Below, piece by piece: positions 11,209-59,780 of a stretch of 64,000 nucleotides of DNA. The notes under the pieces are model-generated. The model did not search any database. It saw only the letters and a program-made list of their open reading frames with translations, and was not told where the DNA came from. The stretch is from Escherichia coli (lineage in GTDB: Bacteria > Pseudomonadota > Gammaproteobacteria > Enterobacterales > Enterobacteriaceae): the NCBI RefSeq assembly GCF_003018255.1, contig NZ_CP027440.1. One strand, 5' to 3'. The stretch's first letter is position 1. Each line of letters starts with the position of its first letter. The position numbers were made by a program, and so were the translations under genes.

Positions 11209-11233
11209 ACCGGATGGCGAGTAGCCATCCGGT
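11209..11233 (+). terminator. Perfect 10-bp stem hairpin (accggatggc-gagta-gccatccggt) just downstream of mrcB stop; no U-tract
   Basis: Read from sequence; followed by A-rich not T-rich sequence, so function as intrinsic terminator is uncertain. Confidence 0.3.
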
Positions 11234-20705: not shown

Positions 20706-20717
20706 TCTGTTGTTCAT

Positions 20718-20740
20718 GTGCCGGATAAACTATCCGGCAC
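20718..20740. terminator. Hairpin gtgccggata-aac-tatccggcac between convergent erpA and yadS
   Basis: Perfect 10-bp stem read from sequence; T-rich tract follows on plus strand. Confidence 0.45.
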
Positions 20741-20751
20741 ATCTTCTCTCT

Positions 20752-56102: not shown

Positions 56103-57401
56103 ATGACACTCACGCTCAATAGACAACTTCTCTCCTCACGCCAGATTCTGGTGGCCTTTAGCGGCGGGCTTGACTCCACCGTTCTGCTGCATCAGTTGGT
56201 GCAGTGGCGGATGGAAAATCCGGGCGTCACTCTGCGCGCTATCCATGTGCATCACGGTTTAAGTGCTAATGCCGATGCCTGGGTTAGGCATTGCGAGAAC
56301 ATCTGCCAACAGTGGCAGGTGCCGCTGGTGGTCGAGCGCGTGCAACTTGCGCAAGAAGGACTGGGCATTGAGGCCCAGGCGCGGCAGGCACGTTATCAGG
56401 CATTTGCCCGCACCTTGTTACCCGGTGAAGTGCTGGTCACCGCGCAACATCTCGACGATCAATGTGAAACCTTTCTGCTGGCGCTAAAACGCGGTAGCGG
56501 CCCTGCCGGGCTTTCGGCTATGGGGGAAGTTTCGGAGTTTGCCGGAACACGGCTTATCCGCCCGTTGCTCGCCCGCACGCGGGGAGAACTGGTGCAGTGG
56601 GCGCGTCAGTATGATTTACGCTGGATTGAAGACGAAAGTAATCAGGATGATAGCTACGATCGTAACTTCCTGCGCCTGCGCGTGGTGCCGTTATTGCAGC
56701 AGCGTTGGCCGCATTTTGCCGAAGCAACGGCCCGCAGCGCTGCGCTTTGCGCTGAACAAGAGAGCCTGTTGGATGAACTGCTGGCGGATGATATAGCACA
56801 CTGTCAAACGTCGCAGGGGACGCTGCAGATTGCGCCAATGCTGGCGATGAGTGATGCCCGCCGCGCGGCGATTATCCGCCGCTGGCTGGCAGGGAAGAAT
56901 GCACCGATGCCTTCCCGCGACGCGTTGGTGAGGATCTGGCAGGAAGTGGCGCTGGCGCGGGAAGATGCTTCCCCCTGTTTACGCCTGGGCGCGTTTGAAA
57001 TCCGCCGCTATCAGTCGCAACTGTGGTGGATTAAATCCGTCACTGGGCAAAGCGAAACCATTGTGCCGTGGCAGACGTGGCTACAACCGCTGGAATTACC
57101 GGCGGGACTGGGAAGTGTACAGCTTACTGCGGGAGGCGATATTCGCCCTCCGCGTGCAGACGAAGCGGTCAGCGTGCGTTTCAAAGCGCCAGGATTGCTG
57201 CATATTATCGGGCGCAACGGCGGACGTAAGCTGAAGAAAATCTGGCAAGAGCTGGGTGTGCCGCCGTGGCTACGTGACACCACGCCACTGCTGTTTTATG
57301 GCGAAACGTTGATTGCGGCGGCAGGGGTATTTGTGACGCAAGAAGGTGTGGCTGAAGGTGAGAATGGCGTCAGTTTTGTCTGGCAGAAAACGCTTAGTTA
57401 A
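56103..57401 (+). CDS. tilS: tRNA(Ile)-lysidine synthetase
   Basis: ORF track 56103..57401 (+), 432 aa; PP-loop SGGLDS. Confidence 0.93.
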
Positions 57402-57407
57402 GTGAAA

Positions 57408-57440
57408 GCCGGATAAGACGCTTCAAACGTCGCATCCGGC
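57408..57440. repeat. REP-like palindromic unit (minus-strand reading gccggatgcgacg-tttgaag-cgtcttatccggc) between convergent tilS and rof
   Basis: Read from sequence; matches the general REP pattern GCCGGATG...CTTATCCGGC. Confidence 0.5.
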
Positions 57441-57449
57441 GAAAGTCAA

Positions 57450-57704
57450 TCAGGACTCGCTCACCACCACCGTACCGATTTCCGGGTGGCTAAAGCTGGT
57501 AATTTTATCCAGACGCAGCTCGCGGGTTGTACCAGCGGCCTCGACGACCAGATACTCCACATTTTTGCGGGAGACTAAATCGCTGGCCTTCGCCTGCAAT
57601 TTTTCGCCATCTTTCAGCTCAAGTGTCAGCATTAAATGATGCTGGCAGGCGAGCTCAAGATTATCGTAATCATCACAATTGATTGGTTGATACGTATCAT
57701 TCAT
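57450..57704 (-). CDS. rof: Rho-specific inhibitor of transcription termination (Rof/YaeO)
   Basis: ORF track 57450..57710 (-); start at second ATG ([23 protein letters not shown]..., 84 aa). Confidence 0.88.
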
Positions 57705-57897
57705 TGACATAATCGCTCACCAGTAAGTTTGCCGCAGCGTATGCTGCTTTTTCCCTGACAGCCTCAGAAAGGGCGTCGTCGGCAGCCATTTCATTCAGCA
57801 CTTTCAAAACGCAGCCCAGCGCGTCCGGAACGTATCCTAAGTCTCCGCTGGCGATTTCCGCGTACCGCTTGCGTATTAACTCACAATATTTTTCCAC
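57697..57897 (-). CDS. yaeP: Small conserved protein of unknown function (UPF0253 family)
   Basis: ORF track 57697..57915 (-); start tentatively at the GTG giving [24 protein letters not shown]... (66 aa); 8-nt overlap with rof start. Confidence 0.75.
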
Positions 57898-59751: not shown

Positions 59752-59754
59752 TTG

Positions 59755-59778
59755 AAAGCCGGAGCATTCTCCGGCTTT
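59755..59778. terminator. Bidirectional terminator hairpin (aaagccgga-gcattc-tccggcttt) between convergent nlpE and yaeF
   Basis: Read from sequence; A-tract before and T-tract after the stem. Confidence 0.55.
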
Positions 59779-59780
59779 TA

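Follow-up and report, generated by a model that had tools for sequence, protein, structure and literature searches.

The tilS/rof convergent junction

The window, by which we mean the whole 64-kb stretch of Escherichia coli DNA that was analysed, contains a tight junction between two convergent genes, tilS (tRNA-Ile lysidine synthetase) and rof (Rho-binding antiterminator). According to the annotation of NZ_CP116067.1, the gene order is yadV ... dnaE-accA-ldcC-yaeR-tilS, followed by rof-yaeP on the opposite strand and then by yaeQ-arfB-nlpE ... metQ. Around the site, a stretch of 1 kb is 100% identical to strain DETEC-S792 (NZ_CP116067.1). The spacer between the two genes reads GTGAAA GCCGGATAAGACGCTTCAAACGTCGCATCCGGC GAAAGTCAA.

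The original prediction had placed a single palindromic REP-like unit in this 48-nt spacer. This is borne out, with the two stop codons bounding positions 57402-57449 exactly, and the minus strand of the palindrome reads GCCGGATGCGACGTTTGAAGCGTCTTATCCGGC, as had been proposed. The unit lies wholly inside the spacer and is thus extragenic, in a transcribed 3′ region. Its stem starts 6 nt after the stop codon of tilS and 9 nt after that of rof. A repeat finder reports one inverted repeat in the spacer, with position 57408-57423 pairing with 57425-57440. The features of the junction are collected in Table 1.

Table 1 Features of the tilS/rof junction and structured RNAs elsewhere in the window (window coordinates).
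Feature	Position	Strand	Basis or remark
tilS CDS	56103..57401	+	stop TAA 57399-57401; ORF list and NZ_CP116067.1 annotation
rof CDS	57450..57710	-	stop TGA 57452-57450; ORF list and annotation
tilS/rof convergent spacer, 48 nt, holding the REP unit	57402..57449	unstranded	
REP palindromic unit, z2-like, REP orientation on +	57408..57440	+	sequence, fold, repeat finder, covariance model; anatomy per PMC8266576
Lower stem GCCGGAT/ATCCGGC	57408-57414 / 57434-57440	+	
AA/GC bulge (two-by-two mismatch)	57415-57416 / 57432-57433	+	
Upper stem GACG/CGTC	57417-57420 / 57428-57431	+	
C.A mismatch (fifth upper-stem pair)	57421/57427	+	
Five-base loop	57422-57426	+	
GAAA where canonical REPs have GTAG	57404..57407	+	model alignment
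Dominant rof mRNA 3′ end, 5 nt past stem	57403 (K-12 213631)	-	Term-seq, PMC7815308
Probable 3′ end of tilS-side transcripts, 5 nt past stem	57445	+	Table S16, bioRxiv 10.64898/2026.03.23.713779, carried over from K-12
Stretch downstream of REP on rof transcript, antisense to tilS 3′ end	57267..57407	-	composition; Rho peak PMC7815308
t44 RNA upstream of rpsB	33532-33618	+	Rfam, above gathering score
CssrA in rpsB-tsf spacer	34457-34566	+	Rfam, above gathering score
HtrA (degP) 5′-UTR thermometer	24595-24640	+	Rfam, above gathering score

Membership in the REP family

REPs of E. coli are imperfect palindromes of the types y, z1 and z2, which have GTAG in front and are interrupted by a conserved AA-GC bulge. 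They occur in several hundred copies per genome and are often paired into BIMEs (PMC8266576). A REP covariance model, R1, was built from 13 aligned K-12 units, the tilS/rof copy being excluded; units were harvested from two arbitrary 50-kb K-12 pieces and from the K-12 nlpE-yaeF spacer, and two more were taken from a published table. The scan with R1 covered the whole 64-kb window with filters off. It returned a match at 57404-57441 (+) with 35.3 bits, and with an E-value of 2.8e-8 over the whole window this match is far beyond chance. Thus the search with REP models that had been proposed confirms the identity of the element. Member units of R1 score 44-60 bits and the background reaches at most 10 bits. 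The upper stem of the tilS/rof unit belongs to the z2 type (GACGC...GCGTC), but the unit scores lower than the canonical copies because of the C.A mismatch at the fifth upper-stem pair and a loop that is longer by one base.

Independent of the model, the REP lower-stem pattern GCCKGAT/ATCMGGC is found together with the AA/GC bulge at 57408-57440. The element also behaves as a dispersed repeat: with the 48-nt spacer as query, 5-22 similar places per E. coli genome (median 15) were found at a strict threshold. Rfam gave no match at the tilS/rof site at gathering thresholds. That database has no REP family proper, and of its only REP-derived family, naRNA4, one of the two hairpins matches the site with 25 bits, which is below threshold.

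The RefSeq annotation of K-12 (NC_000913.3) is uninformative with respect to missing REPs because that record appears to carry no REP features. The yaaX-yaaA spacer, which we take to be a K-12 site with an annotated REP, has no feature in this record; nor has the tilS/rof spacer, and no REP feature occurs in the stretches viewed.

The unit deviates from canonical REPs in its flank and in its organisation. GTAG precedes all 11 of the 11 canonical K-12 units that were harvested, while GAAA is found here; some annotated K-12 REPs deviate from GTAG too, with GTAC or GTTG. The missing GTAG marks a degenerate, probably immobile copy rather than a non-member of the family. Only one unit is present, so that the two or more alternating units with linker that make up a BIME are not found in the spacer.

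The REP transposase TnpA(REP) is reported to need GTAG both to bind and to cleave (PMC8266576). We infer that the transposase cannot mobilise the tilS/rof unit because GTAG is replaced by GAAA, and the unit is probably no longer a substrate of this enzyme. This bears on a possible role at the level of DNA, where gyrase, IHF, HU or DNA polymerase I would bind to the element, or the REP transposase would still use it as a substrate. Such activities have been reported for REP clusters (BIMEs), including in PMC8266576, but they go with BIMEs, in which two or more units are joined by a linker, and the single unit at this site also lacks the tetranucleotide that transposase binding and cleavage require. 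In addition, a 2026 preprint found no role of REPs in chromosome compaction (bioRxiv 10.64898/2026.03.23.713779). We consider a function at the DNA level highly improbable.

The K-12 counterpart of the element has been named. Table S16 of the same preprint (bioRxiv 10.64898/2026.03.23.713779) designates the REP between tilS and rof of K-12 as REP15 and lists it among the bidirectional terminators that overlap REPs. In a 2024 study on Rof (PMC11018626), the yae locus of K-12 is drawn with "insulating" REP elements on either side, beginning at 213,630. The tilS/rof element is a single, diverged z2-type REP unit, it is the orthologue of K-12 REP15, and it is already known.

Other hairpins and structured RNAs in the window

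The tilS/rof unit had been described as the only clear REP in 64 kb, and this description stands. By strict pattern there is one GCCKGAT...ATCMGGC pair in the window, and the next R1 match, with 16.1 bits and E = 0.017, is to a truncated hairpin of REP type at 20718-20739. The strict pattern scan required at least 8 nt between the arms and thus missed this hairpin, which was found by R1. Beyond these two matches and their reverse-strand readings, R1 gave none with E < 1 in the 64 kb. For comparison, 9 canonical REP units at about 6 loci were counted in a 100-kb sample of K-12, while the 64-kb window has 1.

The truncated hairpin is located in the erpA-yadS convergent spacer. At 20716-20744 the sequence is ATGTGCCGGATAAACTATCCGGCACAT, a short and near-perfect hairpin in which only the REP lower stem has been kept. 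The K-12 orthologue is annotated as REP14 and appears, for stationary phase, among the listed bidirectional terminators. On the minus strand, a Rho termination region follows just past the REP14 hairpin (K-12 176852).

The nlpE-yaeF spacer (59752-59780) has only 29 nt in the window strain and contains a plain terminator hairpin, AAAGCCGGAGCATTCTCCGGCTTTT. In K-12 this spacer has 200 nt and contains REP16, a BIME of two units (y and an inverted z2, both with GTAG), without a hairpin of the AAAGCCGGAGCATTCTCCGGCTTTT type. The site is polymorphic across E. coli, with at least three length classes. It represents a second case where a REP or BIME and a simple terminator replace each other at a convergent junction. 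In K-12, REPs flank the yae locus on both sides; in the window strain they do not.

A further hairpin, ACCGGATGGCGAGTAGCCATCCGGT followed by AAAA, occurs in the mrcB-fhuA spacer (11209-11233). It has REP-like arms (CCGGATG/CATCCGG) and is unscored by R1; probably it is the terminator of mrcB. Structured RNAs that Rfam recognises elsewhere in the window are included in Table 1.

Distribution and history of the element

The comparison of the spacer across strains, which had been suggested along with the prediction, showed that the element is present nearly throughout the species. The spacer query was matched over at least 80% of its 48 nt in 5424 of 5426 complete E. coli genomes, and most of the 1-kb region around the site was found in 5417 of them. 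The allele of the window, with T at 57422, is in the minority: identity to it is 99% or higher in 445 of the 5442 matching records.

One natural variant is found in E. coli WEM25, where an IS5-like element (ISKpn26 family) is integrated into the tilS-rof spacer at a TTAA that contains the tilS stop codon. The insertion separates tilS from the REP by about 1.2 kb, and this strain thus has a tilS without the REP at its 3′ end. We considered whether the REP itself had been the target of the IS element and rejected this, since integration at TTAA with duplication of TTAA is the usual targeting of IS5.

For comparison across genera, the Rof protein was scanned for with one genome per species, and rof-tilS spacers from 80 enterobacterial loci were kept; these 80 loci did not include Salmonella, E. 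fergusonii or E. coli itself. E. albertii and two other Escherichia species also have this REP as a single unit, preceded by GAAA or AAAA, GAAA being found in E. albertii and in Escherichia sp. E1V33. A hairpin of the form CGGGCAGC...GCTGCCCG, which is unrelated to the REP, occupies the spacer in Enterobacter, Klebsiella, Raoultella, Kluyvera, Kosakonia, Phytobacter, Lelliottia, Trabulsiella, Yokenella, Buttiauxella, Cedecea and Franconibacter. With A's usually before it and a T run after it, it has the appearance of a conventional intrinsic terminator that works in both directions. In several Citrobacter species, the site is occupied by a REP BIME of two units, CTAC...GTAG. From this comparison we conclude that a REP has taken the place of the conventional terminator in Escherichia, and that a BIME has done so in Citrobacter, in one event or two. 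Fixation of the REP at the tilS/rof junction likely predates the divergence of the Escherichia species.

The distance from rof to tilS is about 350-370 bp in Buttiauxella, Cedecea, Franconibacter and others (about 2262-2630 of the loci). There, a canonical terminator with a T run is found directly 3′ of rof, followed by sequence that may be a small gene.

The stems of the element have been conserved. Among seven Escherichia sequences, only 1 of 22 stem columns varies as compared to 6 of 11 other columns (p = 0.0025). Covariation within the stem is not significant (425 of 500 shuffles reach the observed score), and it is uninformative because 10 of the 12 pairs never vary. At one pair only, the C.A mismatch, closure has occurred in two ways: by exchange of A to G in O157:H7, which results in C-G, and by exchange of C to T in E. 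albertii, which results in U-A. Conservation of the stems could also stem from gene conversion among REP copies.

It may be asked whether the element is just what a selfish mobile repeat has left behind, neutral and without use to the cell, and persists only because nothing removes it. REPs are thought to spread through the REP transposase, and the tilS/rof copy has lost GTAG and has a degenerate upper stem. REP sites also turn over between strains, as illustrated by the K-12 BIME of the nlpE-yaeF spacer that is missing from the window. Against this, hardly any E. coli genome lacks the tilS/rof unit, three sister species carry it too, and its stems are nearly invariant while loop and bulge vary. 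Also, the 48-nt spacer offers no other hairpin to end two converging transcripts, and the 3′ ends of both mRNAs map to the REP (see below). We thus consider it quite unlikely that the element is only a relic.

Transcript 3′ ends and Rho dependence

The 3′ ends at the tilS/rof junction and their Rho dependence are taken from published K-12 data. Window coordinates are obtained by subtracting 156,228 from K-12 coordinates, and the spacer of the window strain differs from that of the strain used for all expression evidence by one loop base, 57422.

In both log and stationary phase, a convergent 3′-end overlap between rof:yaeP and ldcC:tilS:yaeR has been reported for K-12 213630-213673 (window 57402-57445) in bioRxiv 10.64898/2026.03.23.713779, a preprint which credits its terminator list to an earlier study, its reference 47. 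We infer that the limits of this overlap region are the two mRNA 3′ ends. Reference 47 is presumably Ju et al. 2019.

The rof-side end is also seen by Term-seq, where 213631 on the minus strand is classed as the primary 3′ end of rof (PMC7815308), within 1 nt of the limit in the overlap table. These 3′-end maps do not distinguish termination from trimming.

On the rof strand, a Rho termination region peaks at K-12 213495 (window 57267), with a Rho score of 30.65 (p = 9e-38). Reads upstream and downstream numbered 194 and 8 in untreated cells versus 125 and 158 with bicyclomycin (PMC7815308). We reproduced the score of 30.65 from these four published read counts. The score uses 800-nt windows, so that the share of termination that occurs at the hairpin itself is not separable. 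In the first 80 nt of RNA past the hairpin on the rof strand there are 26 C and 9 G. This C-rich and G-poor composition is that expected of a Rho loading site.

The hairpin is stable as RNA. Its folding energy is -19.0 kcal/mol on the plus strand (z = -4.0) and -21.5 kcal/mol on the minus strand (z = -5.4), and 0 of 200 shuffles fold as stably. On the rof transcript, the complement of GAAA (57404-57407), UUUC, opens a U-rich tail 3′ of the hairpin. This tail, UUUCACUU, contains 5 U in 8 nt, while that on the tilS side, GAAAGUCA, contains 1 U in 8. A consensus terminator scan calls the hairpin on neither strand.

These data bear on one interpretation of the published label, bidirectional terminator, namely that hairpin and flanking tracts form a self-sufficient two-way intrinsic terminator which releases the polymerase from either side independent of Rho. 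The label itself, the U content of the rof-side tail and the stability of the hairpin (-19 to -21.5 kcal/mol) are in accord with this, and the same place is held by an intrinsic terminator in other genera. However, inhibition of Rho lifts the downstream reads on the rof strand from 8 to 158, equal to the upstream reads, and this Rho dependence is reflected in the Rho score. The tail on the tilS side is poor in U, and the scan is negative for both strands. A GC-rich hairpin with an immediate U run that acts independent of Rho is thus not what is found at this site: tails, scan and the Rho-dependent read-through on the K-12 rof strand all differ from it. We consider it unlikely that the element works as an intrinsic terminator on its own.

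Term-seq of K-12 also revealed strong 3′ ends inside yaeP, upstream of rof, at 214055 and 214116 (window 57827 and 57888, minus strand). They outscore the primary 3′ end of rof; that at 214055 has a Rho score of 0.33 and an intrinsic-terminator score of 1.06. These ends could bear on the control of rof expression. How Rof expression is controlled has been stated to be an open question (PMC11018626).

A model for the function of the element

We consider it likely that the tilS/rof element, a diverged but fixed orthologue of REP15 which has replaced a terminator, acts at the RNA level as a two-way 3′-end hairpin and insulator, with Rho stopping the polymerase on the rof side. The element would be active as RNA, being part of both transcripts and forming a stable hairpin on each. 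It may serve as a two-way 3′-end element and insulator because both transcripts include the REP, fold, and end 5 nt past the stem.

Intrinsic termination at the hairpin would be inefficient on the rof side, and RNA polymerase would continue into the C-rich antisense of tilS. The stop would depend largely on Rho, which would halt the polymerase just downstream of the hairpin, and exonucleases may trim the rof RNA back to the hairpin. According to the Term-seq authors, Rho-terminated transcripts are generally trimmed back (PMC7815308). The hairpin would mark, and probably protect, both 3′ ends. This resembles the description of REPs as local 3′-UTR elements that act as partly Rho-dependent terminators and as blocks to decay; the same preprint reports no general gain in half-life for genes that end in REPs, which calls for caution (bioRxiv 10.64898/2026.03.23.713779).

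The element may also affect translation. A terminating ribosome would have to open the base of the stem because the stem starts so close to the stop codons. REPs that start within 15 nt of a stop codon are reported to stall terminating ribosomes, upon which tmRNA acts and translation falls (described in PMC12306157). Both distances at this site, 6 nt for tilS and 9 nt for rof, are shorter than these 15 nt. By extrapolation from these other REPs, the tilS/rof unit may lower translation.

A more speculative consequence concerns Rof itself. If the REP that replaced the intrinsic terminator of rof in Escherichia also made the end of its transcript Rho-dependent, a feedback loop could close, since Rof inhibits Rho. 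We give this idea slim chances. If it were true, a rise in Rof would let more polymerases run past the hairpin into the antisense of tilS, an essential gene, and would change the 3′ end of rof. A single hairpin would in this way link the activity of Rho, the level of Rof and the output of TilS.

As a discovery the tilS/rof REP matters little, since it is annotated as REP15 and already shown both in work on Rof and in published tables of terminators. Its modest value is that of a clean example. Where two convergent genes lie close together, a dispersed repeat can supplant a conventional terminator; a REP copy can lose its GTAG transposase signal yet keep its stems across the genus; and formation of the 3′ end of rof, which encodes an inhibitor of Rho, depends on Rho in turn.

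Comparison with known systems

The closest counterpart is K-12 REP15 (about 213,636-213,668). It is found at the orthologous position in the same 48-nt spacer, and its sequence is equal but for one loop base, with A in K-12 and T in the window at 57422. Otherwise the two differ in nothing of substance.

With the canonical z2 unit (GTAG GCCKGATAAGACGC-N4-GCGTCGCATCMGGC), the tilS/rof copy shares the lower stem, the AA/GC bulge, the GACG/CGTC upper stem and the extragenic 3′ location. Unlike the canonical unit, it has GAAA for GTAG, a C.A fifth pair and one additional loop base, and it stands alone rather than in a BIME. This is reflected in its score of 35 bits as compared to 44-60 bits for canonical z2 units.

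REP325 (yjdM-yjdN), described as a terminator that depends partly on Rho and as a stabiliser of mRNA, is similar in being a hairpin element of the 3′-UTR at which the transcript ends and in depending partly on Rho. REP325, however, consists of 12 units between tandem genes, while at tilS/rof one unit between convergent genes serves both strands.

The ancestral rof terminator of other Enterobacteriaceae (AACGGGCAGC...GCTGCCCGTTTT) occupies the same place immediately 3′ of the rof stop codon, where it abuts or overlaps the tilS end; like the REP, it is a two-way hairpin. It differs from the REP in its unrelated sequence, in not being a dispersed repeat, and in having a proper T run.
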